Positions 31,426 through 51,044 are shown, counted from the stretch's first letter. The stretch: 64,000 nt of DNA from Terriglobia bacterium (GCA_965222885.1 OZ244973.1:3141664-3205663); one strand, 5' to 3'. The notes: generated from the sequence alone by a model not told the origin. Made by a program: numbers and translations.

Positions 31426-31713
31426 GACACGCCATAGCCGATGCTAAGGCCATGGTGGGGCAGCAGTTCGCCAAGAAGAATCCAACGGAGCCTCCGTCCT
31501 GAGATTAACCTCGGCCGTTCCGGCGGAGATCCATGAGAAGTGGTTGACCGGACGGCGTCCCATTGCCATAAAAACAATTCTGGCACGTTCCTCTCTCGCG
31601 GCTTTTTGCGCTCTTTGCGGTGCTCGCTCGGACGAGTCTGAACCAGAGAATCTGTTAAGTAACTGATAATAAGTTACTAAATGGAATCCCTGGGGCGGCT
31701 TTGGGTATGGGAT

Positions 31714-32068
31714 TGGTGGAGGCGGGGGGAGTCGAACCCCCGTCCGAAAAACACTGCTCTGAGGAGCCTACATACTTATCCAGTTCAAGGCAAATTTTGC
31801 AGGAAACCCAAAAGAACTGGAAAGTGCAGGCTTCCCGCTAGTCTGATAGGTCTCATCCTGAACCCTCAGACGGTGGGTTCAGGACCAGCCCGCTAAACGA
31901 CGCCTCGCATCCGCCCTGCGGGCCGGGCGGAGGAGACGCGCTGCTTTAATTAAGCAGCGAGTGCAAACTGCGTGTTGGCAGTTGTAATTGGTTCCATCCG
32001 CTTACGGGTGGATGGTGCCCGGCATGCCTCCTCAGCACAATGGCTTCCGTCGAATCCGGTACGCCCCC
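31714..32068 (-). ncRNA. ssrA: tmRNA (SsrA), tag peptide ANTQFALAA
   Basis: 5' end GGGGGCGTACCGGATTCGACGG..., 3' end ...GGGGGTTCGACTCCCCCCGCCTCCACCA. The acceptor stem has a G3-U pair. The tag reading frame GCC AAC ACG CAG TTT GCA CTC GCT GCT TAA (31950-31979) ends in the canonical ALAA, and the stop codon sits in the hairpin CGCTGCTT-AATT-AAAGCAGCG. Length 355 nt. Confidence 0.92.
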
Positions 32069-33134
32069 TTGTCTTCAGCCTACCTTCCTCCCTGAATCGT
32101 GTCAACCTGATGCACTCGTTCAGTACACCTCGCACACCTCACCTCCTTTCGTGATAGCGAAGATAGACTCCATTCAAGCTCCTGGGAGGACAGGTTGCTC
32201 AAGGAGGGTGGATCCGACCCCGTCCCAGCGTGAGACCAGGTCCTTTCCCGTAAAGTGTTGCAGCACCCCTGCCGGCAGGGGCCGCACCTCCAGGATGTTG
32301 ATCTCCACTCCGTCTCCCGGCTTCAAAACCGGTCGGATTGCGGATCGCATCGGGACGTTTCCGGGGATGTTTGCGCGCCCAGACCCCCGGAGGCAACGGC
32401 GGTTGTCTCCGCCCATCCGCCGCCCTCCATCACGCCACGGAGCGGAGAGGTCCGCAGCGTCCGTTCCGTTTTCTCGCCACCACTCCTTCATCGCCAAGCG
32501 TCTGCCGCGGCGACTTCCTTCTTACTACGATGCCAGTATGCGCAAGACGGTTACACGGTTGTCAAGAAAAAACGACCGAAAACCAGGACATGCACAACAT
32601 CTAGCACTTTTTTTCATTTAAGGCCGGTTTCCGGCGCGCGACGACACCTCCAGAACGCTAAACGAACAACTCCGCGCCGACCCCGACCCGCGACCGCTTC
32701 CCGGACTTGGGCATTACCCTGGCGCGGACCCGCATCGTGGAGCCAGCCTATCGTCTGAATCTCGATCTCTGCGCTCTCCTGACAGGTGCACGGCATCTAT
32801 CGGGACGAGTTCAAGCTGAGTTCAGCAATCCGGCTGCTGACGAACTGGAGCCGAGCCAAACTCTTTGTCACCGCGTCAGTTTACTACCAAAGTGCGCCTT
32901 GCCGCTTTGTCCGCAGCGTCTAGGAAGCGCCGAGCCTCTTTCCGTTCCCTCACCGGAAGAACCACACAAAGGCAGGGGGCAAAACATTCACTAAGATCAA
33001 AACCTGTAGATATTTGTCGGATAGTAGGGCTTGGCGAGATCTGATCGGGTCGAAGGGGCATCGCCCGGACCCCATTCTGAGGCTTTGGAGACCCACCGCC
33101 GCAGGGAAAAAGCTCTACTCCTGGCAGGAGCGGC

Positions 33135-34001
33135 CTATTTTTTCACCTGATCTACCCATGGGTCGTAGGCTTCCATCAGGCTCTGGAATCCCGCAGAAAA
33201 CGCTGCCAAGCCATCCAGAAGCGGATTGGCCCGGTTGAACCGAGGAGGGGTACCCGATCGTGTTTTCGCCAGCCCTCCGCCGGCGGTTACCAGCGCCACC
33301 CCTGCGGCGACGTCCCATTCGTGCTTGGGAACCAGGGTCCAAGTAGCATCGGCCAGCCCTCCGGCCACACAAGCCAATTTGTAGGCCACTGACCCGACCG
33401 GACGGATGTTAAATCCCTCTGCCCGGAACCGTTCCCATTCGCCACGATTGACTTCACTGCGGCTGGCAAGAATCAGGGCCTTTTTCGGATCTTTCAATTG
33501 CCGTCCATGCACGGGCTTGCCGTTCAACGTGACTCCGGTTTCCAGAGAACCCAGAAAGGTCTCTCCCGTGACGGGATTGCAAACCCCACCGGCCACCGCT
33601 TCTCCCGCCTCCACAAGTCCCACCGAAAAGCACCATTCGGGAATGCCGGCAACAAATTCGCGGGTTCCGTCCAAAGGGTCCACAATCCACACGCGTTGCT
33701 TTTCGAGCCTTCCGGAATCATCGGCGGTCTCCTCCGAAAACCAACCCTCACCCTCCCGAGCCAGGAGGTTGTGCAAACATTCGTTAACCGCGTGGTCGAG
33801 GGCCGTCACGGGGTCGTCCTTTCCCTTGAATTGCACGGTCACCGGGGTGGGAGCGAGACGATGGAAAATTTCCACGGCGGCTTCCAGTGACGCGGCGATG
33901 CGGCTGAGGTCGTCTTGCCGCCTCATTACCTGATTGCCGGTTTTATAGAGGGTCACGATAAGCTCTGATGGAAGATCCAAACCGAAGGAAACTTGCCTCA
34001 C
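33135..34001 (-). CDS. Inositol monophosphatase family protein, CysQ-like 3'(2'),5'-bisphosphate nucleotidase
   Basis: 'WFSEETADD', 'WIVDPLDGTREF' and 'WDVAAGVALV' motifs of the IMPase/CysQ family. It lies directly downstream of the PAPS synthase gene. An alternative start is ATG at 33926. Confidence 0.75.
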   Translation of the reverse strand: MRQVSFGLDLPSELIVTLYKTGNQVMRRQDDLSRIAASLEAAVEIFHRLAPTPVTVQFKGKDDPVTALDHAVNECLHNLLAREGEGWFSEETADDSGRLEKQRVWIVDPLDGTREFVAGIPEWCFSVGLVEAGEAVAGGVCNPVTGETFLGSLETGVTLNGKPVHGRQLKDPKKALILASRSEVNRGEWERFRAEGFNIRPVGSVAYKLACVAGGLADATWTLVPKHEWDVAAGVALVTAGGGLAKTRSGTPPRFNRANPLLDGLAAFSAGFQSLMEAYDPWVDQVKK

Positions 34002-34023
34002 CGTGAACGGCGCTTTAGAACTT

Positions 34024-35820
34024 TCACGCTGCCGACTCGCCGTCGGCAGCGATGAACCCTTCCCGCTCCAAGTGAAGAATCAACTGTTGGGCGGCCTCCT
34101 CCGGCGTCAATTCGGTGGCGTCAAGGACGACCTCGGCATCTTCGGGGGCCTCGTAGGGGTCCGAGACGCCCGTAAATTGCTGCAGGAGCCCGGCCCTAGC
34201 CTTCGCGTACAAACCCTTCCGGTCCCGCTGCTCGCAAATCCCCAGGGGCGTGGAGACATAAACCAACAAAAATCCTCCTACGCTCGCCACGACCTCACGC
34301 ACGTCCTTGCGGACGGTATCATAAGGAGCGATGGGTGCGCAGATGGCAATCCCTCCGTTCTTGGTGATCTCCGAGGCGACGAATCCGATGCGGCGGATAT
34401 TGATGTCGCGGTGCTCTTTGGAAAAACCTAGCTCGGAGGAGAGGTTTTTGCGCACAATATCTCCGTCCAAGAGGGTCACCGGGCGGCCTCCCATCTCGAG
34501 CAGCTTCACCCGAAGCGCCTTGGCAATCGTAGATTTGCCCGCGCCTGAAAGGCCGGTAAAAAACACTGTGAAGCCCTGCCGGTGCCGGGGAGGATGCGTC
34601 TTCCGCAACTCCCGCACAACCTCCGGGTAGGTAAACCACTTGGGAATCTCCCGGCCCTCGGCCAGACGGCGGCGCAACTCGGTCCCCGAGATATTGAGAA
34701 CGCGGGTCCCCGAGGGAACTTCATCCTCAGGAACGTAGCCGTCCAGGTCCTCCACATACACCATCATCTTAAAAGGAACCATGCCCACGCCAATTTCCTC
34801 CTCGTACTTGCGCAGCAGCTCCTGGGCGTCGTAGGGGCCGTAGAACGGTTTACCGGAGGAATCACTGCCGGGGCCGGCGTGGTCCCGGCCTACAATCAGA
34901 TGCGTGCAACCGTAGTTCTTGCGAATAATCGCATGCCAAACTGCCTCGCGCGGCCCACCCATGCGCATGGCCAACGGCAGAAGGGCCAGCTTGGCGGTGT
35001 TCTTCGGATAGTGTGGAAGCAGCTCTTGATAGCACCGGACGCGTGTATAGTGGTCCACGTCGCCGGGTTTCGTCATCCCAACCACAGGATGAATCAACAA
35101 GTTGGCTTCAATTCCTTTGGCGGCCCGGAGCGTCAGCTCCACATGGGCCCGGTGCATGGGATTTCGCGTCTGAAACGCGACAATCCTTCGCCACCCAAGA
35201 CGGGTAAATTCCGACCGCAACTCGGCCGGAGTCAGGCGCTGGAATCGAAAGTCATAATGAGCCGGAAGCTGCACACCCTCGAGCGAGCCGCCGACGTACC
35301 AGGGCTGTGTTTTCGCCAGCAGGTAGGCAACACCGGGATGCTCCCGGTGGGTGGTCCCGAAAACCGTCTCGGTCTCGGCCTCCAAGTTGGGCTGCCAGAG
35401 ATCATCCACCCGCAAGGCAGCGAGCATCACTCCCTCCAGGTCCCGGAGGGCCACCGAATCTCCCGGTTTCAGGCGGCGGGCCAGCTCCTCGGTTATGTCC
35501 AACACGACGGGAATGGGCCAAATCAGCCCCCCCCGCAGACGCATCGAAGAACACACCGAATCGTAGTCCGCCCGATCCATAAAACCGCGAAGCGGAGAAA
35601 AACCGCCGTTCAATAACAATTCAACGTCGCAAATCTGACGTGGGGTCAGGTCCCAGGAAGGCCAATTTCGGGAGGCGTCCTGGAGCTCCCCGGCCCGGTC
35701 TGGGTCCACCACCAGGTTGGCCAACTCTCCCCCATGGGGCAAAATCAGATGCGTCGATCTCTCTTTTTTCTGAAAAGAACTCTCTTGTTCGCGACTTCCG
35801 CTCCCTGTCGCAGTTTTCAT
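34024..35820 (-). CDS. Bifunctional sulfate adenylyltransferase (ATP sulfurylase) / adenylylsulfate kinase (PAPS synthase)
   Basis: Sat part: 'VAFQTRNPMHRAHVELT' and 'LIVGRDHAGPG'. APS kinase part: 'GFTVFFTGLSGAGKSTIAKAL' (P-loop) and 'LDGDIVRKNL'. 598 aa. Confidence 0.9.
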   Translation of the reverse strand: MKTATGSGSREQESSFQKKERSTHLILPHGGELANLVVDPDRAGELQDASRNWPSWDLTPRQICDVELLLNGGFSPLRGFMDRADYDSVCSSMRLRGGLIWPIPVVLDITEELARRLKPGDSVALRDLEGVMLAALRVDDLWQPNLEAETETVFGTTHREHPGVAYLLAKTQPWYVGGSLEGVQLPAHYDFRFQRLTPAELRSEFTRLGWRRIVAFQTRNPMHRAHVELTLRAAKGIEANLLIHPVVGMTKPGDVDHYTRVRCYQELLPHYPKNTAKLALLPLAMRMGGPREAVWHAIIRKNYGCTHLIVGRDHAGPGSDSSGKPFYGPYDAQELLRKYEEEIGVGMVPFKMMVYVEDLDGYVPEDEVPSGTRVLNISGTELRRRLAEGREIPKWFTYPEVVRELRKTHPPRHRQGFTVFFTGLSGAGKSTIAKALRVKLLEMGGRPVTLLDGDIVRKNLSSELGFSKEHRDINIRRIGFVASEITKNGGIAICAPIAPYDTVRKDVREVVASVGGFLLVYVSTPLGICEQRDRKGLYAKARAGLLQQFTGVSDPYEAPEDAEVVLDATELTPEEAAQQLILHLEREGFIAADGESAA

Positions 35821-36057
35821 GAGCTTGATCCCTCGAATCGGGTCACATTGCCCCCTGTTCTGATGCCTTGCGGGAATTCGTCGTCAGCAGGAGCCGGCAA
35901 TCCGAAGCTTGCCGGCCCGGTAAATCAGGCAAGTACCCCTTGGCAGTCGCTCGGAAGCGTTCAATGCGGGAACCGCTTTCTCCCTCACATTCTCAGAATA
36001 ACATAAAGCGACCCGAGCCGCCGCACTGCTTTCCCCAAGACCTTGGAGCTATCGAGT

Positions 36058-36879
36058 CTAAATCACGACCTTGAAGGGACGTCGCAATGCAAAGGCGAAA
36101 GCCACTGAGAGGACAAAATAGGGCACCATCCAGTGCACACGGAAACCGAAGCAGGCCAGTCGGAGCGCAGGATACCTTACCTCAATGGATGCCACCGGAG
36201 CTCCATCGGGCAACACAGATTCCGCCGGATAAAACACTCCCTCCAGCCATCCGGAAACACGGCGAGGAGAGCGTGCCAGGATACGGTTGCCGACTTGAAC
36301 TTTTTTGGGGAACGTTTCTTCCCCTGCCACCACTTGGAGCTGGTAGGTTCCTGCCTGCTCGGGCCGGATACGCCAATCGACTTCGTGAGCGCTGGGGATA
36401 CGAAGCGGTGGGGTTTCAACGCGCAGTCCCGCGGGGCTCTTCAATTGAAGAGCCCGCGAATCGAACCGAACCCCGGATGCCAACCGGACTCGGACCAGGG
36501 CAGCCTGCCCCGGTCGAAGGCTCTGGTACCCGTAACGGAGGTCGAGTTGGATGAGAATGAGCCCAATCGGCAGGATCATCCAGGCCAAAGGTTTCAGTGT
36601 ATGCCGTAGGTAGATCAGGTTGTACCGGAGAACATCCTTTTGGGCGGAAACAAGAGCCCGCAGGTCATTCTGGAACAGCCGCATCTCGAAAAATCCAGCA
36701 TGGATTCTCCGTTTCGCTTCTTGAAGAGCCTTCTGGTTGGAGGTCTTTCGGAAAACCCAAAGCATGAAGACAGACGTCAGAGCCGCCATCACCACCAGCC
36801 CCACCCAGGGAGATAATTCCGCAAATGGGTAGAGCAGCAACCGGAAGAATCCATTCAACAGATTATGGAAGAAGGTCAT
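36058..36879 (-). CDS. Polytopic membrane protein of unknown function with a central soluble beta-rich segment
   Basis: 273 aa. TM 'WVGLVVMAALTSVFMLWVF' is followed by the basic helix 'KTSNQKALQEAKRRIHAGFFEMRLF', TM 'LAWMILPIGLILIQL', a non-hydrophobic segment of about 140 aa, and terminal TM 'WMVPYFVLSVAFAFAL'. No family was confidently recognised. Confidence 0.6.
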   Translation of the reverse strand: MTFFHNLLNGFFRLLLYPFAELSPWVGLVVMAALTSVFMLWVFRKTSNQKALQEAKRRIHAGFFEMRLFQNDLRALVSAQKDVLRYNLIYLRHTLKPLAWMILPIGLILIQLDLRYGYQSLRPGQAALVRVRLASGVRFDSRALQLKSPAGLRVETPPLRIPSAHEVDWRIRPEQAGTYQLQVVAGEETFPKKVQVGNRILARSPRRVSGWLEGVFYPAESVLPDGAPVASIEVRYPALRLACFGFRVHWMVPYFVLSVAFAFALRRPFKVVI

Positions 36880-36923
36880 TTCGGGCCCATTCAGGATCGC
36901 AAGGCTGGAGAGGAATTTTCCGA

Positions 36924-37115
36924 TTACTCAATATAGCCGAGCCCCTGCAAACGCTTCTTGAGTTGCTCCTCGGATTCGGCTTCCTCCATCTTGGCGATCT
37001 CTTTTTCCACCAGATGGGAGACGAATTCCTCCACCGAGGAGTATCCGGCCTCCTCGGCGCGCGCCTTGACTTTTTCCAACAGGGCCTTATCGATTTTTAT
37101 CTTCGGCTCAAACAT
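36924..37115 (-). CDS. 63-aa acidic protein, ribbon-helix-helix-like
   Basis: 'KIKIDKALLEKVKARAEEAGYSSVEEFVSHLVEKEI' fits a strand-helix-helix (CopG/Arc) pattern, followed by an acidic tail and 'LKKRLQGLGYIE'. It sits between the AP paralogs and the membrane protein, with 44- and 49-nt gaps. Confidence 0.5.
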   Translation of the reverse strand: MFEPKIKIDKALLEKVKARAEEAGYSSVEEFVSHLVEKEIAKMEEAESEEQLKKRLQGLGYIE

Positions 37116-37164
37116 CTATTCTCCTCACTCCTCGAGTCTGATGAGTCTCCTCTTCGTCCACGTT

Positions 37165-39144
37165 CTACCAAACCGGCCGGCCCTCCAGAGAGGAATTCGA
37201 CCGAATTCCGAACTCCGCCAGGATGCTGGGCGCCAAGTCCACCAATTGCGGCTCGGTTGCCTGCAGCTTCCGGTTGCTCAGAAGGATTCCAGGCACCTGA
37301 TCCGCGGCCATGCAATGGTCGCCACTCCACTTGTCGAGATTATCCACCAGCACATCGCGCGGAACCCGACCCGTGCTCGACTCATTGGAGTTCCGGTAGC
37401 CACGGTGGAAGCCGACGATCAGATCCGGAGCCAGATGCAAAGCCGAGCCGGAGAAGATTTCCGAACTCTTGTAAACGCGGGCGATGACGGGCCGACGGTT
37501 TTCCGGGTCGCGGTAGGCGAGCAGCCCGTTCGCAATTTCCTCTTCCAGTGCTTCGCGCTCGGAGAAGGGGACAATGCCGGTCGATTCACGTCCCAATAGA
37601 TTGAGGTACAACGCATTGATCCCCAATCCGTAGGCTCGTGTGCGGGACCAGTCCACGTTGGTCAAAAATGCCGTCTCCCCCTGTAAGCCAGGATCGCGCA
37701 GAACCAGATAACCCTGATCCTTCAGCCACGTGTTCAGATGAAAAGCTCGGTACCAGGGAGCAAAGCCGTGATCGGAGAGCACCAGAACGGCCGTGTCGTC
37801 TCCCATCTTCTTGAGAGTCTTCCCCAGCAGCGTGTCCATTTGCCGATAAACCTTTGCAATGGCATCCCGCCGGGGCGCGTCGGCCACCGGATCGTGGGCG
37901 GGATGATCCGGGTCCATGGTCCGCCACATAACATGGGATATCTGGTCCAAGCTGGAAAAGTAAAAGAATAATACCCCGCTCGCAAACCGTTCCAGGAAAT
38001 ATTCATACATCCGCCTGCGCTCCCGGAATACCACCTCGGCTTGGCGGAGAAAGTCCTGATCCCGGAAGATGCCATCGGTGAGTGCTTTGGTGTCTTCCGG
38101 CATGCCCTGGGTGTAATACGGCCCCACCGCTTCGGCGATGCGGCTCGCAAACTCTGGAGGACTTGAGATCGGCAAGGCGGCCGAGGCTGGGTCCAGGTTC
38201 ATCGGGCTCACATAAAGCTGAAAATCCGGGCGCACCTGCTGGAGATAGAAGCGGCAAATACCCGTCACGCTCTGAAAATAAGGAATCAGGGGAAATTCGA
38301 CCCGCACCCAATCACTCCACTCTCCCTGTTGAAGAAGGACCTCTTCTTCTCCCACCCGAATCTTGGCAAGAGGGTTTTCCGGATCGATATATACGGCGAA
38401 CTCCGCGGTGGCCCTCGGACGCTCCTTCCGGAAGGTATTCGTCGGGCCGGTAAGGACGGCGTGAATGATGTGATCCTCCGGGGTGACCTGCTTGATCTCA
38501 CCTCCCGACAGATCGGTGCCGAAGCGTTCGACGTCGGTGGTGAAGAAGCTGAAGCGTCCGTAGGTGCCCTGAAGATCCGGGGTACCCATTCCGGAAAGGA
38601 TACGCCCCGGCTGGCCTGTAGGGGGAAAGTTGGCAGGGATCTTTATGACGGTGGCCGGGATACCGTTCTCCTCCAAGGTCACCCACCAGGGCGTTCCTTT
38701 GCGGAGTTGAACCGCTTCCCCTCCCGAGAGGGGGATCACCCACTTGCCGACCGAGAAGGTAAGCCCAGGTCCCTCCACTCGCGAGGTGGAAAGAAAGGGC
38801 AACATAGTGTCCGGGTCACGATGAATAAAATCGAAGATACCCGTCTGCCCGGGATTCATTCCCGTAATGAAGCTTGACCAGGCTACGGGACTCTGCGGAG
38901 GTATGGTCGTTGCCAGCGGAACCAGAGTTCCTTGCTGGGCCACGGACTGAAAGTGGGGCATCTTACCTTCCGCCATCAGACTCCGCAGGAGGCCATAATC
39001 CATGCCGTCGATGGCCAGGACTAAAAGCCTTTTGGCCGTCACCGGCTGGCTGCGGCAGGCGCCCATAAATAAGCTCACGGCCAGGACTGCCCCGAGGAGG
39101 GCGATTCCGGCAAATCTTGCCAAACTGCGGCTCTCGAATTTCAT
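37165..39144 (-). CDS. Alkaline-phosphatase-superfamily protein (type I phosphodiesterase/nucleotide pyrophosphatase family), lipoprotein
   Basis: Lipobox 'LFMGAC'. Motifs 'LVLAIDGMDYG', 'PPQSPVAWSSFITGMNPGQTGIFDF', 'VLSDHGF' and 'WSGDHCM' are present. ATG at 39144 overlaps the stop of the upstream paralog (ATGA). The longer ORF to 39327 is rejected. Confidence 0.8.
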   Translation of the reverse strand: MKFESRSLARFAGIALLGAVLAVSLFMGACRSQPVTAKRLLVLAIDGMDYGLLRSLMAEGKMPHFQSVAQQGTLVPLATTIPPQSPVAWSSFITGMNPGQTGIFDFIHRDPDTMLPFLSTSRVEGPGLTFSVGKWVIPLSGGEAVQLRKGTPWWVTLEENGIPATVIKIPANFPPTGQPGRILSGMGTPDLQGTYGRFSFFTTDVERFGTDLSGGEIKQVTPEDHIIHAVLTGPTNTFRKERPRATAEFAVYIDPENPLAKIRVGEEEVLLQQGEWSDWVRVEFPLIPYFQSVTGICRFYLQQVRPDFQLYVSPMNLDPASAALPISSPPEFASRIAEAVGPYYTQGMPEDTKALTDGIFRDQDFLRQAEVVFRERRRMYEYFLERFASGVLFFYFSSLDQISHVMWRTMDPDHPAHDPVADAPRRDAIAKVYRQMDTLLGKTLKKMGDDTAVLVLSDHGFAPWYRAFHLNTWLKDQGYLVLRDPGLQGETAFLTNVDWSRTRAYGLGINALYLNLLGRESTGIVPFSEREALEEEIANGLLAYRDPENRRPVIARVYKSSEIFSGSALHLAPDLIVGFHRGYRNSNESSTGRVPRDVLVDNLDKWSGDHCMAADQVPGILLSNRKLQATEPQLVDLAPSILAEFGIRSNSSLEGRPVW

Positions 39145-41261
39145 TGCGTCTGCACTGGTTCTCCAAGCAGGGATTTTCCATCCATATAGGCGGGCGCGGG
39201 AACGCCAAAAAGCTCCAGGATGGTGGGAGCCAAGTCCATCAACGCGGGACGGTGGGCGGACAGACTGCGGTTGCTGAAAAGAATACCCGGCACCGCCCGT
39301 GGGTCCACGGAGTGATCCCCGCTCCAAGCCTTCACGTTGTCCTCAAAGAGGGTATCATTCACCACGCCGGTCGCGCCCTTCCACGAGATCCGATAACCCA
39401 CGTTGTAGCCGACAATCAGATCAGGAGCATTCTCCGCATAGGGTCCCTGGTATAGCCGCGCCGAATCGAAGACTTTATTGACGGCGACCTTCCCCTTGGC
39501 TTCGTCCCTCAGGCCGTCCAGTTTGCTGATGATTTCCTGCTTGAGTTCCCGAGCCTCGGCCCCCGGCGCAACGATCCCTTGTGCCTCCCGCCCTCGGATG
39601 TTGAGAAATATGCCTGCCAGCCCCATGGCATAGGCCCGGGTGCGTGACCAATCCACCTCGCGCAGCCAATCGCCGCTGGAATCGACGCCCTTCTTGAGTG
39701 CCAGATAGCCGTTGTTCCGGAGCCAGACATTGGGATTCACCCCGCGCTGGAAGCTCTTGAATCCGTGGTCAGAGATAATCAGCAGGACGTCCCGATCACC
39801 CAACCGGCCCATAACGCGCCCCACCAGCTCGTCCATGCGCCGGTACAGGTTCGGAATGGCGTCGCGGAATTCTTCGTTCCGGCTGCCGCGACGCGCCGGA
39901 TGATCCGGCTCCAGAAAACGCCAGAACATGTGCTGAAGGCGATCGGTAATATCGAACACACAGACCAGGGCACCCTCGCGCAGCTTCTCCAAGGCACCGA
40001 AAAACATCCGTTCCCGCTCTTCATGGATGTCATAAGCCTGCTCCAGAAAAGCCCCGTCATCCAGGGCACCTTCATTCAAGGCCCAGGTATCTTCGGCCAG
40101 CCCCAAGGTGGCGTAAGGGCCGATCAACTTGGCCAGATAGGTGGCGTAGTAGCCGGGATGCGAAATCGGCATGGCCGGACTTTCCGGGTCGATGTGGATC
40201 GGCGAAACGTAAAGACGAAAGGGAGTCTGCTTTCCGTTGTTCACTTCCCGCAAGTAAAAACGCGCCAGACCTCGGACCTTCAGCCCCAGACCCGTCGGGA
40301 AGCTCAGGCGAATCCAGTCGCTGAATTCACGCGACCGCAAAGTGAAGGCCGCCCCTCCGACCGTTAGCCGAGCCAAGCCCTTTGCCGGGTCCAGCGCAAC
40401 GCTAAGCGGCAAACGCATTTCTGGATTGCCTTCCCGAAGAGGATTCGCCGGCCCCACCAAGTGGGACTCCACCCGGTTGTCCCGCAGCTCGACCCTGACC
40501 CGAATGCCTCCCTCCTCGATGGGTTCCGCCTTGGCCTCGGTAGTGTAGAGGGTGAATGTCCCCTGGGTGCCGCGCAGGTCCGGTACGCACATGGCACTGA
40601 GCTGTGCTCCATAGAATGGCTCCGGAGGAAACGTAATGGGAACCCGCAGAATGGTGCTCCACAGTCCGTATTCTCCCAGTACGGTCCAGAAGGGCTTGCT
40701 CTTCCGAAGCAGCCGAAGCTCGGGCTTGGAAATCGGAATCTGAAATCTGCCCAGCTTCCAGACCCGGGGCGAGCCGATCACGGCAGAAGAGAGAACCGGC
40801 AGATAGGTACGAAGGTCGCGGTCCAGAAAGTCGAAAATATTATGCCGGCCGGGCTGAGATCCAGTGGCAAACGAAGACCACGCGACCGGGGACACGGCCG
40901 GGAAAGTGGTCTCCAGTCGAGAGTAGCATCCCTGCTCTCGCAGCCGCTGAAGATTCGGCAACCAACCTCGCTGCAAGTAGTCTTCCGTCAGATCAGGTTC
41001 CATGCCGTCCAGACCCACCACAATCACCCGATCGACGTCGGAGGGCCTTCGGGAACGCCGCTTCATCCTCTGGATGAAAGAACGTACGGGCCAAGTAAGA
41101 ATCGACAAGAAAGCCACCCAGATGGTGACGAATAGGACGAGAAAGGACGTCAGGAAGGCAAACCCGGCCCCCGGGCCAACGTAGGCCTGCCCGACAGTCG
41201 GCAAGGTAAAAACCGCTACCATCACGAGCCGTAAATGCCGGACTGAAAATACTTGCCTCAT
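39141..41261 (-). CDS. Alkaline-phosphatase-superfamily protein (same family), N-terminal membrane anchor
   Basis: 'AYVGPGAGFAFLTSFLVLFVTIWVAFLSIL' is the anchor. Motifs 'VIVVGLDGMEPD', 'FPAVSPVAWSSFATGSQPGRHNIFDF', 'IISDHGF' and 'WSGDHSV' are present. It is colinear with 37165-39144 over its whole length. Confidence 0.8.
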   Translation of the reverse strand: MRQVFSVRHLRLVMVAVFTLPTVGQAYVGPGAGFAFLTSFLVLFVTIWVAFLSILTWPVRSFIQRMKRRSRRPSDVDRVIVVGLDGMEPDLTEDYLQRGWLPNLQRLREQGCYSRLETTFPAVSPVAWSSFATGSQPGRHNIFDFLDRDLRTYLPVLSSAVIGSPRVWKLGRFQIPISKPELRLLRKSKPFWTVLGEYGLWSTILRVPITFPPEPFYGAQLSAMCVPDLRGTQGTFTLYTTEAKAEPIEEGGIRVRVELRDNRVESHLVGPANPLREGNPEMRLPLSVALDPAKGLARLTVGGAAFTLRSREFSDWIRLSFPTGLGLKVRGLARFYLREVNNGKQTPFRLYVSPIHIDPESPAMPISHPGYYATYLAKLIGPYATLGLAEDTWALNEGALDDGAFLEQAYDIHEERERMFFGALEKLREGALVCVFDITDRLQHMFWRFLEPDHPARRGSRNEEFRDAIPNLYRRMDELVGRVMGRLGDRDVLLIISDHGFKSFQRGVNPNVWLRNNGYLALKKGVDSSGDWLREVDWSRTRAYAMGLAGIFLNIRGREAQGIVAPGAEARELKQEIISKLDGLRDEAKGKVAVNKVFDSARLYQGPYAENAPDLIVGYNVGYRISWKGATGVVNDTLFEDNVKAWSGDHSVDPRAVPGILFSNRSLSAHRPALMDLAPTILELFGVPAPAYMDGKSLLGEPVQTQ

Positions 41262-41406
41262 ACTCTGCGCTCCGTCAGCGTTCCCATAGGCGATGGTAAC
41301 AGGAATTTACCGACCCTCGGTCGGCTCCAGGCTTCTTCTCCGACGAACCGCTTCGTTCGGGGACCCCCCGGGGACCGCATTCCATTCCACACCGCAGGAT
41401 GGTCGA

Positions 41407-43005
41407 TTACTCACTCCAATTTTTGAATCTTTCCCGCAGCTCCCTTTTCTTGAATTTCCCGGCAGAAGTTCGTGGAATTGCATCGACAAAGACGAATCCA
41501 TCCGGAATTTGCCACTTGGCAAAGTTCGAGGAGAGGAAAGCGCGGAACTCCTCTGCGTTGGGGCGGGCATCTCCGTTGGGAACCACGACAGCCAAGGGTC
41601 GTTCCTGCCACTGCGGGTGAGGAACCGCCACCACGGCCGCCTCCCGGACCGCCGGATGCGCCATCAGGGCATTCTCCAGCTCCACGGAACTGATCCATTC
41701 CCCTCCCGACCGGATCAGGTCCTGAGTCCGATCCACGATCTTGATGTAGCCTTCCGGGTCGATGGTCACTAGATCGCCGGTGGAAAACCATCCATCGCCG
41801 CTCCACCGTTCACGGCTTTCGGGCAGGTTAAAATAGCTTTCGGCGACCCACGGCCCGCGTGCCTGAAGTTCCCCAATCGTCTTGCCGTCCCATGGCGCCT
41901 CGCTCCCTTCACCCATAGCTCGCAATTCGAGCAACGGACCCGGTAATCCTTGCTTCGCAAGCACCGCGTATCTGTCCTGTTCACTCCAGGCTTTCATGTG
42001 CGGCTTGAGTCGGCTTACGGTCGAAAGCGGCGCGATTTCCGTCATTCCCCATCCGTGAATCACCTGGATGCCTTGCCGGTGAAATCCGCGGATCATGGCC
42101 TCCGGCGGTGCCGCGCCCGCCACGGCCAAGCGAAATCCCTCTGCGAGCTTCCAGCGGCCCGGGTTCTTCTCCAGCGCTTCCAGAACTTGAAACCAGACCG
42201 TGGGAACCCCACAGGAGAGAGTAACCCGTTCGGCTTCGAATCGATCCAGCATATCTTCCGGACGTAAATTGGAACCGACGAAGACCTGTTTTGCTCCTAC
42301 CATCGTAGCTGCAAAGGGGACTCCCCAGGCGGCAGCATGAAACAGCGGCACAACCGAGAGCACAACATCTTCTTGCCGGATGGCCAGCGAATCCGCCAGA
42401 CCCAGCGCCAGCGCCCCCAGGACGAAGGAACGATGAGAGTACATCACCCCTTTGGGCCCTCCGGTCGTTCCCGAGGTGTAACACATTCCTGCCGGCTCGC
42501 TCTCCCTCAAGTCCGGATAAGTGAAATCTCCTCGAGCTCTCCCTAACAGCGCCTCATAATCTTCGTATCCTTCCGCTCCCGTCTTTCCTCGCGAGGAAAC
42601 CACGATGACCCGATCCAGCTTGATTTGGTCCCGGAACTGTTCGTAGAGCGGCAGAAGAGCGTCATCCACAATCAGGAAGCGATCCCCAGCGTGGTTCACA
42701 ATGTAGGCCAGTTCGGTAGGGTGAAGTCTCAGATTCAGCGTGTGCAACACTCCACCCGCCACCGGAATGCCGAAATAGGCCTCCAGATGGACGTAGTGGT
42801 TCCACATCAGTGTCCCTACCCGATCCCCGCGCTTGAGTCCGGCTTTTTGCAGCGCCTCCGCCAGCGCTCGAACCCGCCGGGTGAAATCCGTGTAGGTGTA
42901 GCGGTGAAGCGTGGCATCCGGCAGGCGCGAAACAATCTCGACTTTGCCGAATAACTTTGCCGCCCGCTCCAGGATCCCAACCAGGGTAAGCGGATAGTCC
43001 ATCAT
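41407..43005 (-). CDS. AMP-dependent synthetase/ligase (medium/long-chain fatty acid-CoA ligase-like)
   Basis: 'MCYTSGTTGGPKGVMYSH', 'HGWGMTE', 'WFSTGDLVTIDPEGYIKIVDRTQDLIRSGGEWISS' and 'PRTSAGKFKKRELR'. The start is taken at 'MMDYPLTL' (43005). The upstream ORF extension to 43260 would overlap gmhA and is rejected. Confidence 0.85.
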   Translation of the reverse strand: MMDYPLTLVGILERAAKLFGKVEIVSRLPDATLHRYTYTDFTRRVRALAEALQKAGLKRGDRVGTLMWNHYVHLEAYFGIPVAGGVLHTLNLRLHPTELAYIVNHAGDRFLIVDDALLPLYEQFRDQIKLDRVIVVSSRGKTGAEGYEDYEALLGRARGDFTYPDLRESEPAGMCYTSGTTGGPKGVMYSHRSFVLGALALGLADSLAIRQEDVVLSVVPLFHAAAWGVPFAATMVGAKQVFVGSNLRPEDMLDRFEAERVTLSCGVPTVWFQVLEALEKNPGRWKLAEGFRLAVAGAAPPEAMIRGFHRQGIQVIHGWGMTEIAPLSTVSRLKPHMKAWSEQDRYAVLAKQGLPGPLLELRAMGEGSEAPWDGKTIGELQARGPWVAESYFNLPESRERWSGDGWFSTGDLVTIDPEGYIKIVDRTQDLIRSGGEWISSVELENALMAHPAVREAAVVAVPHPQWQERPLAVVVPNGDARPNAEEFRAFLSSNFAKWQIPDGFVFVDAIPRTSAGKFKKRELRERFKNWSE

Positions 43006-43235
43006 GCTCCCGATTATAACCGGCCCGGTTCGAATGTAGTCGAATCTTTCCCTTGGGCACATCCGGCGGAAACCAGAACACACCCCGCCAAGAGTACCCA
43101 GGCACCGGAGAGCCACGTTGACCGTGCCTGGGGATTCTGTTAGCTTGATGAAGCTTTGAGGGCCGAAAAGGGAACCCATCAAAGCCGGGTCTTGATCTTT
43201 CCCAAGATCAGCGGTGATTTCCGAAAGGGAGAAGA

Positions 43236-43868
43236 ATGGGCATTTCCAGAGAAAAGGCAATCGAGCTGATCCGCCAACAGGTGGGAGAGAGTTGCGAGGT
43301 CAAGCGAAGTTTCTCTCCGGAGCTGATTGAGGCCGTCTGGACACTCGCTTCACGAACCGCCGCAGCCTACCGAAGCGAGCGTAAAGTTCTGCTGATGGGA
43401 AACGGCGGCAGCGCCGCGGACGCGCAGCATATTGCAGCGGAATTGGTGGGCCGGTTTCGTCGCTCGCGAAAAGCCTTACCCGCCCTGGCCCTGACAACGA
43501 ACAGTTCCATCCTGACCGCGGTTTCCAACGATTCCCATTTCGAAAATGCCTTCACCCGCCAACTGGAGGCATTCGCCAAGGCCGGCGACGTGGTTGTGGC
43601 CATCAGCACCAGCGGGCGTTCGGTGAACGTTGTCCGAGGAATCGAGCTGGCTCGCGACCTGGGATGCTATACCGCGGCTCTGACGGGACGTACGGGAGGC
43701 GACCTGCCGGGTCGAGTGGACCTTTTGCTGGCGGCACCCTCCGACGACACTCCGCGCATTCAGGAAGCCCACAGCTTGCTGGGCCACCTATACTGCGACC
43801 TGGTGGAACGGCTTCTTTTCGGCGAACCGGCCCGACCCGGGTCCGGCCATCCGGGCGGGAATGAATGA
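43236..43868 (+). CDS. gmhA: Phosphoheptose isomerase (SIS domain, GmhA)
   Basis: 'LLMGNGGSAADAQHIAAELVGRF', 'ALTTNSSILTAVSNDSHFENAF', 'VVAISTSGRSVNV' and 'RIQEAHSLLGH'. Confidence 0.85.
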   Translation: MGISREKAIELIRQQVGESCEVKRSFSPELIEAVWTLASRTAAAYRSERKVLLMGNGGSAADAQHIAAELVGRFRRSRKALPALALTTNSSILTAVSNDSHFENAFTRQLEAFAKAGDVVVAISTSGRSVNVVRGIELARDLGCYTAALTGRTGGDLPGRVDLLLAAPSDDTPRIQEAHSLLGHLYCDLVERLLFGEPARPGSGHPGGNE

Positions 43869-43927
43869 GGACCTGGACTATATTGGACTACCTATGAGGA
43901 ACAATCTTAGAATTTTCCCCGCGTGGC

Positions 43928-45292
43928 ATGGATGAAGGGAGTTCGATGGAATCCTCCAACCCCGGCCAAAACCATGCACTGAGCGTCTTTGGGTTGGGGT
44001 ATGTGGGTACGGTGTGCGCTGCGTGTTTGGCTGAAAAAGGCAATCCTGTGGTGGGAGTGGACATCAACCCGGCCAAAGTGGAGCTATTGGGGTCGGGCCG
44101 TAGCCCCATCGTTGAGAAGGATATTGAAAAGTTCGTTGCCGGCAATCACCGTGCCTGCCGACTCCGCGCCACCACGGACGCCGTCGAGGCCGTCCAACAG
44201 TCGGCAATTTCTTTCGTCTGTGTGGGCACGCCCGGCTTGAGCACCGGTGAGATCGATCTGAACAGCATTCGAGGTGTCTGCCGGGAACTGGGCCGGGCTA
44301 TCCGCCAAAAGAGCTCCTTTCATCAGGTGGTGCTGCGAAGCACGCTTCTGCCAGGCACTACCGAATCCATAGTGATTCCGACCTTGGAAGACGAGAGTGG
44401 CAAGCGTGCCGGCAAGGACTTCGCGGTTTGTGTCAATCCGGAATTCATGCGTGAAGGGAGCGCCGTGGCCGATTTCTTTCACCCGCCGTTCACGGTGCTG
44501 GGCGCGGCCGATCCGAGCCACATCGGCCTCTTGCGAGAGCTCTATCACTGGGTGCCCGGACGCATCTTTGAGACCAGTCTGAACGTGGCCGAAATGGTGA
44601 AGTATGCCTGCAATGCCTTTCACGGCTTCAAGGTAGCGTTTGGGAACGAACTGGGAAGTCTTTGCAAAAATCTTTCCGTGGATACCGAAAAGGTAATGGA
44701 GATTTTCACCTCCGACACCAACCTGAATATCTCCCCCGCGTATCTCAAGCCGGGGTTCGCCTTCGGCGGGTCTTGCCTCTCCAAGGACCTCCGGGCACTC
44801 CTCCATCGCGGGCGGGAGCTTGAACTCCGGCTGCCGTTGCTCGAGTCGGCCTTGCCCAGTAATGCGGAGCATCTCGAAAGAGCCGTTCAGACGATTTTGC
44901 GTACTCGAAAGAAAAAAGTGGGGCTGGTGGGCCTGAGCTTTAAGGCCAGGACCGACGACCTGCGCGAAAGCCCTCTGGTCCAACTGGTGCGACGGCTTCT
45001 CGATGAAAGTCGTGAGGTCCGGATCTGGGACGAATGTGTTTCGACCCACACGCTGATCGGAACCAACCGGCAATTTTTCGAGAAAACTCTTCCTGAATTG
45101 CCCTCCCTTCTTTGCGCCAGTCTCGACGAAGTGGTCCAAAAGGCCGAGGTTCTGGTGGTGGGGACGAGCGCCGTCGCGAAAGAGAATTTGACTTCACGCC
45201 TGCGGTCCGGGCAGATCATTGTCGATCTGGTCCATCTGGAGAAGGCCGGTCGCCCCGACGCGGTGGGGAGCTATATAGGCATCTGCTGGTAA
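43928..45292 (+). CDS. Nucleotide-sugar 6-dehydrogenase (GDP-mannose dehydrogenase-like branch of the UDPG/MGDP dehydrogenase family)
   Basis: 'LSVFGLGYVGTVCAACLAEKGNPVVGVDINPAKVELLGSGRSPIVE' resembles the AlgD-type N-terminus. The catalytic Cys is in 'AFGGSCLSKDLRAL'. C-terminal 'GLSFKARTDDLRESP'. The start could be 43946. Confidence 0.85.
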   Translation: MDEGSSMESSNPGQNHALSVFGLGYVGTVCAACLAEKGNPVVGVDINPAKVELLGSGRSPIVEKDIEKFVAGNHRACRLRATTDAVEAVQQSAISFVCVGTPGLSTGEIDLNSIRGVCRELGRAIRQKSSFHQVVLRSTLLPGTTESIVIPTLEDESGKRAGKDFAVCVNPEFMREGSAVADFFHPPFTVLGAADPSHIGLLRELYHWVPGRIFETSLNVAEMVKYACNAFHGFKVAFGNELGSLCKNLSVDTEKVMEIFTSDTNLNISPAYLKPGFAFGGSCLSKDLRALLHRGRELELRLPLLESALPSNAEHLERAVQTILRTRKKKVGLVGLSFKARTDDLRESPLVQLVRRLLDESREVRIWDECVSTHTLIGTNRQFFEKTLPELPSLLCASLDEVVQKAEVLVVGTSAVAKENLTSRLRSGQIIVDLVHLEKAGRPDAVGSYIGICW

Positions 45293-45325
45293 AACCGATG
45301 CCGAGAAATTCAAAAGAGGACATGT

Positions 45326-46282
45326 ATGACGGATTCCTACCCGGCCTTGGTAACAGGTGGAGCCGGATTTATCGGGTCCAATTTGGTAAGGGAACTCCTG
45401 CGCCGAGGCTGGCAAGTCCGAATTTTAGATAATTATCTGACGGGAAAACAGGAACGTCTGCAGGAGATTCCTTCCGGTCAATTCGAGCTTCTGGAAGGCG
45501 ACATCCGGAATTTCGAGGACTGTGAACGAGCCTGCCGGGGAAGGCAGATTGTATTTCATCAGGCGGCGTTGCGATCCGTTCCCCGATCGGTTGACGATCC
45601 CCGGACGACCCATGACATCAACATTACGGGAACGCTCAATATGCTGCAAGCGGCTTTCCAGGCCGGTGTGCGCCGCTTTGTTTATGCCTCTTCGTCTTCG
45701 GTCTATGGGGACACCGATCTTATGCCTCAGGAGGAGAATCAGCTTCCCGATCCGGTTTCGCCCTACGCGGTATCGAAGCTCGCCGGCGAGCACTACTGTC
45801 GTAGCTTTACGAAAAATGTGGGGCTGGAAACAGTCAGTCTTCGCTACTTCAATGTTTACGGTCCCCGCCAGGACCCGGAGTCGAAATATTCCGCTCTCCT
45901 TCCCGCTTTTCTCTCCCAGGCGGGGCGCGGCGAACCCTTTGAAGTGCACTGGGACGGCTTGCAAGCGAGGGATTTTACCTTTGTCGAGGACGTGATTCAG
46001 GCCAACCTGAAGGCAGCGTTGGTCCCGAACGTAGCAGGAGAGGTTTTCAATGTCGCCGGAGGAAAGAGCATCACCGTGTTGGATGTGGCTGAGGCCATCG
46101 TGAAGGTCCTCGGAAAAGACCCGGGAAGGCGATACACGGATCGCCGGCAGGGAGATGTCCGTACCACCTGGGCCAGCATCAGCCAGGCCCAGAAGCTGCT
46201 CGATTATCGACCTTCGGTGGAATTCGAGGAAGGGTTGCGCCGTACCGTGGAATACTTTCGGTGCATCGGCTTAGTCAGTTGA
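45326..46282 (+). CDS. NAD-dependent nucleotide-sugar 4-epimerase (extended SDR; WbpP/TviC-like)
   Basis: 'LVTGGAGFIGSNLVRELL', 'HQAALRSVPRS', 'YAVSKLAGEHY' (YxxxK) and 'LRYFNVYGPRQDP'. Confidence 0.85.
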   Translation: MTDSYPALVTGGAGFIGSNLVRELLRRGWQVRILDNYLTGKQERLQEIPSGQFELLEGDIRNFEDCERACRGRQIVFHQAALRSVPRSVDDPRTTHDINITGTLNMLQAAFQAGVRRFVYASSSSVYGDTDLMPQEENQLPDPVSPYAVSKLAGEHYCRSFTKNVGLETVSLRYFNVYGPRQDPESKYSALLPAFLSQAGRGEPFEVHWDGLQARDFTFVEDVIQANLKAALVPNVAGEVFNVAGGKSITVLDVAEAIVKVLGKDPGRRYTDRRQGDVRTTWASISQAQKLLDYRPSVEFEEGLRRTVEYFRCIGLVS

Positions 46283-46397
46283 GCTTGCTTTCTGTGCCGG
46301 CACCTGCTCGTTGTTCGGAACGGCAACGGGTAGCAAAAAACGAAATCGGACGACCGCAGATGCGTGACCAACCGTACTCTACGCCGATGAGGAAACC

Positions 46398-50745: not shown

Positions 50746-51044
50746 CGGACCTTAAGGCCAACTACTCCGTCATCGACCGCTTGGTGCACAACCTGGCCAT
50801 GGGTCAGACCGAGACACAGATATTGCTGTCCCGGATCGAGGACGGGCGTTTCAACAGGGACCATGCAGATATAACGGCGAACGCGCCGGTCTTCATTACC
50901 TCGCTGCCGCGGGCCGGCACCACGTTGTTGCTTGAGCTCGTCGCCGGCACGCAGGACTTCGCCGCCCACACCTACCGCGACATGCCCTTTCCGCTATGCC
51001 CGCTGACGTGGGACCGTCTCGCGCGGCGGGGCTGGCGGCCCTAG
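50742..51044 (+). pseudogene. N-terminal fragment (about 100 aa) of a sulfotransferase-family gene
   Basis: 'VIDRLVHNLAMG...' followed by the PAPS 5'-phosphosulfate-binding loop 'PVFITSLPRAGTTLLLELV' and 'YRDMPFPLCPLTW'. It ends prematurely at 51042-51044. The downstream sequence is unrelated. Confidence 0.5.

Follow-up and report, generated by a model that had tools for sequence, protein, structure and literature searches.

The subject of this report is an array of seven genes that occupies positions 33135-43005 on the minus strand of a 64,000-nt stretch of Terriglobia bacterium DNA (GCA_965222885.1 OZ244973.1:3141664-3205663), the whole of which is called the window. The array is a join of three parts: a lineage-specific acyl-CoA ligase gene, a deeply conserved four-gene membrane cassette, and genes for the supply and clean-up of 3'-phosphoadenosine 5'-phosphosulfate (PAPS). 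The cassette encodes two paralogous enzymes of the alkaline phosphatase (AP) superfamily, here named AP1 and AP2, a 63-residue protein, and a 273-residue membrane protein of the Oxa1 superfamily, and its core is an undescribed system made of known superfamilies. At the comparative level, its distribution and neighbours tie it to PAPS synthesis and sulfotransfer, and the four proteins may act on both faces of the membrane on an envelope precursor.

Conservation of the Four-Gene Cassette

With each species represented by a single genome, a scan yielded more than 565 AP1 relatives, and the best 80 loci were taken for the study of neighbourhoods, with gene order read by tblastn using all seven window proteins. 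Among these best 80, the order AP1, AP2, 63-residue protein, 273-residue protein is kept in essentially every sufficiently long locus, and the loci belong to Acidobacteriota, Gemmatimonadota and Binatia, together with single metagenome-assembled genomes of Gammaproteobacteria and Bacteroidota, at AP1 identities of 55-72%.

The genes on either side of this core are another matter. Linkage of the ligase to the cassette is confined to three close Terriglobia relatives (L002, L003 and L071), which share the whole gene order of the window. The gene for the bifunctional ATP sulfurylase/adenosine 5'-phosphosulfate (APS) kinase, Sat-CysC, and that for the CysQ-like protein are downstream of the cassette in these three relatives, upstream of it on the same strand in 11 loci, and convergent with it in one (L041), and a standalone APS kinase is found upstream of the cassette in five further loci. 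Altogether, an APS-kinase domain is encoded within 10 kb of the cassette in 20 of the 80 loci, and the CysQ-like gene directly adjoins sat-cysC in 14 related loci. An initial annotation of the window had treated the 10-kb array as one unit, a view that the restricted linkage of the ligase and the presence of Sat-CysC and CysQ within 10 kb in only about a quarter of the loci do not sustain. What is conserved is the four-gene core, beside which the PAPS genes recur; the ligase is not a conserved member.

Association with PAPS Synthesis and Sulfotransfer

For the survey of neighbourhoods, the flanking open reading frames (ORFs) were clustered and the recurrent clusters annotated. The most frequent neighbour of the cassette is a sulfotransferase of about 195 residues, without a signal peptide and with the motifs GLPRSGTS and FMRR..EVLASQ (Sulfotransfer_3/1), which is present in 35 of the 74 loci having at least 1.5 kb of sequence upstream of AP1, with a usual orientation divergent from AP1. 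The gene directly after the Oxa1-like gene is, in many genomes, this sulfotransferase.

Phylogenetic profiles point in the same direction. They cover 301 genomes sampled evenly from the phylum of the window, 85 of which have the cassette; the sample includes one unpublished genome (G049), which makes one count in each tally and on which no claim rests. An APS kinase is encoded by 82 of the 85 carriers vs 119 of the 216 other genomes, and the cassette's sulfotransferase by 57 of the carriers vs 12 of the others. Across the 30 families listed, 8 have both the cassette and the sulfotransferase, 2 the cassette only, 2 the sulfotransferase only, and 18 neither (Fisher p = 3e-4). Neighbourhoods and profiles together argue for the functional tie of the AP pair to PAPS and sulfotransfer that had been suggested from the window itself. 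A search of the literature retrieved no paper combining PF01663, the family of AP1 and AP2, with a sulfotransferase.

PAPS Metabolism in the Clade of the Window

The fused Sat-CysC protein is assigned by its equivalog model, scoring 929 bits vs a cut-off of 669 for NF004040 with its motifs intact (QTRNPMHRAH, GRDHAG, GLSGAGKST and LDGD), and it is the only ATP sulfurylase (a single PF01747 match) in this 4.04-Mb, 99%-complete genome. Its neighbour had been named a CysQ-like phosphatase of 3'-phosphoadenosine 5'-phosphate (PAP). The inositol monophosphatase (IMPase) family and the position beside sat-cysC stand, but the protein falls below the CysQ equivalog cut-offs (TIGR01331, 104 bits vs 229; NF008182, 72 vs 379), and HisN nearly equals its TIGR01331 score. 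We regard it as a putative PAP phosphatase, from its family membership and the conserved adjacency to sat-cysC.

As stated in the initial annotation, the window has no cysH, cysI or cysJ and no intact sulfotransferase. Elsewhere in the genome, the only PF01507 gene encodes a CysH of 244 residues with the segments E-C-C-G-I-R-K and S-I-G-C-E-P-C-T, i.e., the CC...CxxC iron-sulfur motifs, and the same CC and CxxC motifs are present in the CysH of all three relatives; a sulfite reductase is present in the genome as well. Judged by these motifs, CysH is of the APS-reductase type, and because of this, assimilation would need neither the kinase domain nor a PAP phosphatase. The proposal that PAPS serves as a sulfuryl donor rather than as an intermediate of assimilation is thereby strengthened. 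The CysH gene (G000:C1:2618805-2619335, minus strand; L088:1417-2151) is directly beside a gene of the TauE/SafE sulfite-exporter family.

The consumer of the PAPS is harder to place. No sulfotransferase with 5'-phosphosulfate-binding (5'-PSB) and 3'-phosphate-binding (3'-PB) motifs is encoded at positions 33135-43260, and neither this genome nor the three relatives yielded the sulfotransferase that usually accompanies the cassette. These relatives, whose completeness is not established, have no match to PF00685, PF13469 or PF17784 (Sulfotransfer_1, _3 and _4). For PF09037 (Stf0) and PF03567 there was no match here, but there was none in any control genome either. By these searches, PAPS in this clade is without an identified consumer, and the usual sulfotransferase is missing.

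Some sulfotransferase-like sequences were nevertheless encountered. Two other sulfotransferase-like genes are located far from the array in this genome. The genome's Sulfotransfer_1 gene (L001) was considered as a partner shared by the clade and set aside, as a search with this query did not find it in the three relatives. A truncated N-terminal fragment at about 50886-51032, plus strand, 8 kb upstream of the array, matches PF13469 positions 1-49 with 21 bits; it was rejected as a remnant of the cassette's partner, being of a different, longer type (S-L-P-R-A-G-T-T).

AP1 and AP2, Paralogues Predicted on Opposite Faces of the Membrane

AP1 and AP2 match PF01663 with 104 and 117 bits, respectively, vs a cut-off of 23, and they are collinear, with 40% identity over 629 residues and 9 gaps. 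The metal ligands and the nucleophile of AP1 are D85, S124, D440, H444, D498, H499 and H650, equivalent to D46, S85, D400, H404, D458, H459 and H610 of AP2. The DG, the S-P-V-A-W-S nucleophile segment, D..H, SDHG and (G)DH occur in both and are invariant or nearly so among 36 AP1 and 29 AP2 orthologues, which agrees with the initial annotation in that both paralogues look active. Across phyla, the mean column identity of AP1 is 69%.

The model of AP1 (pLDDT 77.5) was compared with solved structures by Foldseek, and the matches are PhnA, the Xanthomonas (Xac) nucleotide pyrophosphatase/phosphodiesterase (NPP), PafA and ENPP1, with E values from 1.6e-9 to 1e-7 and probability 1.00 against 3szy, 1ei6, 7n1s and 5tj3. 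The enzymes of this NPP/PhnA group (Xanthomonas NPP, 2gsn/7n1s; PhnA, 1ei6/3szy; PafA, 5tj3; ENPP1) share the PF01663 core fold with AP1 and AP2 and have the ligands of two metals and a Ser/Thr nucleophile in the same order. They differ in that AP1 and AP2 are only about 11% identical to them and have some 300 extra residues, which in the AP1 model are mostly beta strands inserted between the nucleophile and the D..H motif. In addition, the AP pair travels with a microprotein and an Oxa1-type protein, and AP1 would be tethered so as to face the cytoplasm.

This last point depends on the N-terminus of AP1, which in 79 orthologues starts with a basic n-region and a hydrophobic segment that closes with AxA, and continues through the invariant Y-[IV]-G-P-G-A-G to a 24-residue transmembrane (TM) helix. 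The 24 residues after the helix hold on average 7.9 K/R and 0.13 D/E, and because of the positive-inside rule applied to this basic stretch, the catalytic domain of AP1 probably faces the cytoplasm. A signal-like segment, a short loop, a TM helix and a basic tail are also the layout of M13 procoat, the classical hairpin substrate that depends on YidC only, and the AP1 anchor reproduces it from the AxA through the short loop and single TM helix to the basic stretch. AP2 has a signal peptide followed by a lipobox (L-F-M-G-A-C in the window), with the lipobox Cys in the same context in nearly all AP2 orthologues; in four of those examined, a plain signal peptide takes its place. Because of these features, AP2 is predicted to be a periplasmic lipoprotein. 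The two paralogues had at first been taken for a pair of ectoenzymes, and for AP1 this probably has to be given up in view of the predicted orientation of its anchor.

Two candidate identities were tried and rejected. AP1 and AP2 are not formylglycine sulfatases, as S-P-V-A-W-S replaces C/S-x-P-x-R and there is no PF00884 match. The invariant Asn141 of AP1 is not the catalytic Asn of the NPPs either, since it falls on the Gly of H-G in the alignment with PhnA, and the canonical position is Phe in both paralogues. In front of I-F-D-F, AP1 orthologues have an invariant H-N, most AP2 orthologues H-G, and the AP2 of the window T-G. A third, shorter relative of AP1 is encoded elsewhere in the genome (G000:C1:576178-577563, plus strand) as an open frame of 488 residues, with 30-33% identity in two stretches.

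These features allow three other readings of the AP pair. According to the first, AP1 would itself be the consumer of PAPS (or APS) in this sulfotransferase-lacking clade. Its Ser would take the sulfuryl or 3'-phosphoadenylyl group and load it on a membrane carrier, the Oxa1-type protein would let the carrier cross, and an acceptor in the envelope would receive the group from AP2, so that the cassette would be the missing consumer of PAPS. AP-superfamily enzymes form covalent Ser/Thr/FGly intermediates with phosphoryl and sulfuryl groups, and eukaryotic NPPs hydrolyze PAPS; moreover, the catalytic domain of AP1 is predicted to be where PAPS is made, the genes for the PAPS synthase and the CysQ-like protein are directly downstream of the cassette in this clade, the CysH of the three relatives is of the APS type, and the searches for the usual sulfotransferase, and for the three Pfam families in the relatives, came back empty. 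However, two thirds of the carriers have a canonical sulfotransferase, AP1 is equally conserved with and without it, two other sulfotransferase-like genes exist in the genome, and the empty searches concern relatives of unestablished completeness and, for PF09037 and PF03567, families that matched no control genome. We hold this reading to be quite unlikely.

The second reading, which we find more doubtful still, is nucleotide housekeeping, with AP1 and AP2 as plain phosphodiesterases or pyrophosphatases that break down nucleotides (PAP, PAPS, APS or others) within the cell and beyond it, and the Oxa1-like protein as the dedicated insertase of AP1. The NPP/PhnA-type nearest folds, the procoat-like anchor and the linkage of the cassette to PAPS genes are all in its favour. 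Nevertheless, a putative PAP phosphatase of the CysQ type is already present and every bacterium already has YidC for such anchors, and the high column identity, the membrane tether, the fixed microprotein and the paralogue on the opposite face fit scavenging poorly.

Third, the paralogues could be Pho-regulated phosphodiesterases that free phosphate from organic esters during phosphate starvation. Membership in PF01663 is compatible with such a role, and one AP-superfamily enzyme of the PF00884 family elsewhere in the genome, which shares a C-terminal tail with the 63-residue protein, adjoins a PhoD-like phosphatase. AP1, though, is predicted to face the cytoplasm, no Pho/Pst gene is found among the annotated recurrent neighbour families (which include a sulfotransferase, sulfatase-family enzymes, an M16 peptidase and a methyltransferase), and the association of the cassette with sulfotransferase and PAPS is strong, all of which makes this the least probable of the readings considered here.

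An Oxa1-Superfamily Protein of the DUF106/Ylp1 Type

The 273-residue protein had been annotated simply as a polytopic membrane protein, which is correct as far as it goes and can now be made more specific. A profile of its orthologues matches MJ0480 (5c8j) with an E value of 4.8e-10; the match spans TM1, the coiled coil and TM2, whereas TM3 is matched weakly. PF01956 is matched by 5 of 35 orthologues (best E 3e-4), and the protein of the window has no match to it at E <= 1. The AlphaFold2 (AF2) model, with pLDDT 92, runs from TM1 through a coiled coil in the cytosol to TM2, and an Ig-like domain of about 130 residues separates TM2 from TM3; the helices are at 24-46, 49-68/73-116 and 251-265, and the Ig-like insert, at about residues 120-250, is predicted to be periplasmic.

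When the model was searched against 48,161 chains, the top match, well above the rest, was 7tut chain 8, with Z 11.6 over residues 18-273, compared with Z 7.3 for the bacterial YidC 3wo7. This chain is a 177-residue subunit of a ribosome-bound multipass translocon, which we take to be TMCO1. A Foldseek search with the whole model had been set aside, as it gave Ig-like domains only because the insert dominated, and the membrane core was seen in the wide structural search. By profile and model, then, the protein is assigned as a three-helix member of the Oxa1 superfamily of the DUF106/Ylp1 type with an Ig-like insert, and is a putative insertase or scramblase. The family is large, with 1,226 representative clusters (50% identity) at E <= 1e-30.

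In PMC5868721 and bioRxiv 10.1101/2020.12.20.422553, the DUF106/Ylp1 clade is described from archaea and eukaryotes only, and PF01956 is treated as archaeal plus EMC3/TMCO1 (bioRxiv 10.1101/2020.12.20.422553). YidC is described both as an insertase and as a scramblase of lipids (PMC11997395). The 273-residue protein resembles the group of Ylp1/MJ0480 (DUF106, PF01956; 5c8j) and the eukaryotic TMCO1/EMC3/GET1, by its profile match to MJ0480 and its structural match to 7tut chain 8, and differs from this group in being bacterial, in having the periplasmic Ig-like insert, and in being always encoded beside the AP pair.

The 63-Residue Protein and its C-Terminal Tail

The smallest protein of the cassette has no signal peptide, an invariant A-G-Y-S-S and the C-terminal sequence K-[RK]-L-x-G-L-G-Y-I-[SE]. 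It is conserved in 71 loci, with the LGYIS end in 63 of them, and its mean column identity is 76%. Its only match to a ribbon-helix-helix (RHH) family is weak, to NF001884 (N-terminal region of NikR; E 0.0027, 17.8 bits vs a cut-off of 119), and a sequence search of the PDB returned nothing meaningful.

The tail is shared with other enzymes of the AP superfamily. Secreted PF00884 enzymes adjoin the cassette in 21 of 74 loci, and 24 of the 30 proteins of this neighbouring PF00884 cluster end in L-[RK]-x-L-G-Y-[IVL]-x. Among the 45,545 stop-to-stop frames of 50 residues or more in this genome, all of which were scanned, the tail pattern occurs in four, three of them real genes, i.e., those of the 63-residue protein and of two PF00884 enzymes. 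These two enzymes are predicted to be secreted and have Thr and no Arg at the nucleophile site, without a formylglycine signature. One (G000:C1:1217393-1218805, minus strand; L093:2001-3404) has 467 residues and the tail L-R-T-L-G-Y-I-D, and is the one that adjoins the PhoD-like phosphatase; the other (G000:C1:2785545-2788076, minus strand; L094:2001-4481) has 826 residues, the tail L-K-A-L-G-Y-I-Q, and a beta-rich N-terminal domain of about 330 residues. The C-terminus of Sat-CysC, ...L-E-R-E-G-F-I-A followed by 8 residues, loosely resembles a degenerate LGYI tail.

A docking model was built from three chains, namely the cytosolic domain of AP1, the Oxa1-like protein, and the 63-residue protein as the partner. 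The 63-residue protein reached an ipSAE of 0.50 vs 0.00 for all controls, among them one with AP1 alone exchanged; by the tool's own rating this is weak support, and the runs had at least 94% contact agreement and a partner pLDDT of at least 70. Calibration on 80 solved complexes and 110 mismatched pairs saw 58 of the former and 2 of the latter reach the mark, and scores of 0.60 or lower comprised only 7 of the 80 solved complexes together with both passing mismatches. On this model, the 63-residue protein probably docks on AP1. Our reading is that the microprotein may supply to AP1 in trans the tail found in cis on other AP-superfamily enzymes.

A protein-centred interpretation would have the 63-residue protein as an RHH regulator whose LGYI tail docks on AP-superfamily enzymes, or would make its conserved Tyr the target of sulfation. 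The resemblance to NikR, the invariant G-Y in A-G-Y-S-S and L-G-Y-I, the restriction of the tail to only two PF00884 enzymes and this protein among the real genes of the genome, and the dependence of the modelled docking on AP1, at its weak rating, can be cited for it. Such conservation across phyla would be unusual for a repressor co-evolving with its operators, and the protein and its tail are unchanged in genomes that lack the sulfotransferase, so that we consider this interpretation very improbable.

Gene Map and Flanking Regions

Genes were called by an ORF scan combined with Pfam and NCBIfam scans, and the resulting map is given in Table 1. The seven co-directional minus-strand genes, the ATGA overlap of the AP1 stop with the AP2 start at 39141-39144, and the two longer gaps are all as first described.

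Table 1. Genes and principal gaps of the array, in order of transcription (window positions)
Feature	Position	Strand	Family or basis
Acyl-CoA (long-chain fatty acid type) ligase, 532 aa	41407-43005	-	PF00501 + PF13193; NF004837
Gap, ligase/AP1, 145 nt	41262-41406	-	
AP1, NPP/PhnA-like AP-superfamily enzyme, 706 aa	39141-41261	-	PF01663
AP2, paralogue of AP1, predicted periplasmic lipoprotein, 659 aa	37165-39144	-	PF01663
63-aa protein, RHH-like N-terminal half	36924-37115	-	no family assigned
273-aa membrane protein, Oxa1 superfamily (DUF106/Ylp1/EMC3/TMCO1-like)	36058-36879	-	orthologue profile, AF2 model
Gap, cassette/sat-cysC, 237 nt	35821-36057	-	
Sat-CysC, bifunctional ATP sulfurylase/APS kinase (PAPS synthase), 598 aa	34024-35820	-	NF004040
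CysQ-like IMPase-family protein, putative PAP phosphatase, 288 aa	33135-34001	-	PF00459

The ligase scores 547 bits vs a cut-off of 476 for NF004837, and its ATG at 43005 is preceded by GGGAG. The 145-nt gap has no convincing terminator or promoter. The 237-nt gap may contain a separate promoter, and of terminator-like structures it has only a weak hairpin (36022-36007); the corresponding distance is 131-1150 nt in the three relatives. The scan for promoters and terminators performed at chance level, with 2 promoter-like sites vs 3.0 expected and 15 terminator-like sites vs 13.7, and an Rfam scan of 31500-43500 found a tmRNA only, with no leader or riboswitch in either gap.

This tmRNA gene (31714-32068, minus strand; tag ANTQFALAA) is just downstream of the array, separated from the stop of the CysQ-like gene by about 1 kb without a convincing gene (32069-33134). 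On the other side, divergent from the ligase, nucleotide-sugar genes occupy 43236-47756 on the plus strand, encoding a SIS-domain protein, two members of the UDP-glucose/GDP-mannose dehydrogenase family, and an NAD-dependent epimerase. The epimerase is also found near the array in all three relatives, and the SIS gene in L003.

Comparison with Known Systems

The best-known loci for PAPS-dependent sulfation of the envelope are rhizobial NodPQ/NodH and LpsS, and the mycobacterial CysDNC/Stf0 sulfolipid pathway. The likeness lies in the clustering with envelope genes: a PAPS synthase, a PAP phosphatase and, in most cassette carriers, a small cytoplasmic sulfotransferase are grouped there, and APS reductase is the route of assimilation in the organisms concerned. 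We know of none of these loci that has NPP-type paralogues, an Oxa1-type protein or a tailed microprotein, and the clade of the window differs from them further in lacking the sulfotransferase.

A second comparison is with lines of the lipoteichoic-acid type, in which a precursor is synthesized in the cytoplasm, passed by a flippase, and used by the extracellular AP-superfamily transferase LtaS; EptA and OpgB are related cases. The logic is alike, with an AP-superfamily enzyme outside the cell transferring a phospho-head-group from a lipid carrier, and the cassette often adjoins secreted PF00884 enzymes with a Thr nucleophile. This is an analogy and not membership, since the cassette enzymes belong to the NPP branch, one of them is predicted inside the cell, and a transfer reaction is hypothetical for them.

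A Working Model and its Implications

Taken together, the observations are compatible with a two-sided processing line, one in which an envelope precursor associated with the membrane (a lipid or lipid-linked glycan) receives sulfate from PAPS; the substrate is hypothetical, and we give this model slightly less than an even chance. On the cytoplasmic face, AP1 would make or trim a phosphodiester-linked intermediate, with the 63-residue protein probably docked on it, the sulfotransferase would add the sulfate, and the CysQ-like enzyme would remove the PAP by-product. The Oxa1-like protein would either insert the AP1 anchor or let the polar head group cross the membrane, its Ig-like domain may hold a periplasmic partner, and AP2 would perform the matching reaction outside. 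An envelope lipid or glycan, which the initial annotation had put forward as the substrate of the AP pair, is retained here as a hypothetical one. The observations made in that annotation were sound, and its interpretation holds in part, for PAPS as a donor and for the tie of the AP pair to PAPS, and is not supported for the single unit and the two ectoenzymes.

Several points weigh against this model. The orientation of AP1 rests on the positive-inside rule and not on a measurement, and the docking of the 63-residue protein is modelled, with weak support only. The genomes compared are related, and the genome-level counts overstate their independence; at the level of families, the association of APS kinase with the cassette is reduced to 10 of 10 vs 13 of 20 (p = 0.06), the kinase being widespread in the phylum in any case. 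In one carrier genome, 99% complete (G230), both the APS kinase and the sulfotransferase are absent. PAPS genes lie within 10 kb of the cassette in no more than about a quarter of its loci, the 237-nt gap separates the cassette from sat-cysC in the window, and Sat-CysC, as the sole ATP sulfurylase, must also feed assimilation, so that its position could be partly incidental.

The last of these points lead to the alternative that the genes are chance neighbours, with Sat-CysC and the CysQ-like protein serving general sulfur metabolism under their own transcription and the cassette being unrelated to PAPS. The need for the only ATP sulfurylase in assimilation, the gap with its weak hairpin, the 60 of 80 loci without an APS-kinase domain within 10 kb, and the frequency of APS kinase in the phylum (201 of 301 genomes) would all be explained in this way. 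Chance, however, does not account well for an adjacency that recurs in several gene orders and distant lineages, for the excess of APS kinase among carriers, or for a sulfotransferase that adjoins the cassette or belongs to its operon and follows it from genome to genome; in addition, with a CysH of the APS-reductase type, the kinase domain and CysQ would be dispensable for assimilation. We judge chance neighbourhood to be unlikely, and still the most credible of the alternatives to the two-sided line.

The findings bear on the use of PAPS by bacteria that assimilate sulfur through APS, on how and where the DUF106/EMC3/TMCO1 branch of the Oxa1 superfamily evolved, and on the role of the very common "LGYI-tailed" proteins of the alkaline phosphatase superfamily. 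The clade of the window is a good test case, with the PAPS genes right downstream of the cassette and the usual sulfotransferase lost. Should the cassette itself prove to consume PAPS there, this would represent a new, non-canonical class of PAPS-dependent group transfer across a membrane, and the first assigned function for a bacterial homologue of the archaeal-type Oxa1 proteins. If the two-sided processing line is correct, many soil and marine bacteria (Acidobacteriota, Gemmatimonadota and others) would carry an unrecognised membrane machine. By means of related enzymes on opposite faces of the membrane and a homologue of an insertase that the papers cited above report from archaea and the eukaryotic ER only, it would couple the activation of sulfate to the chemistry of the envelope.

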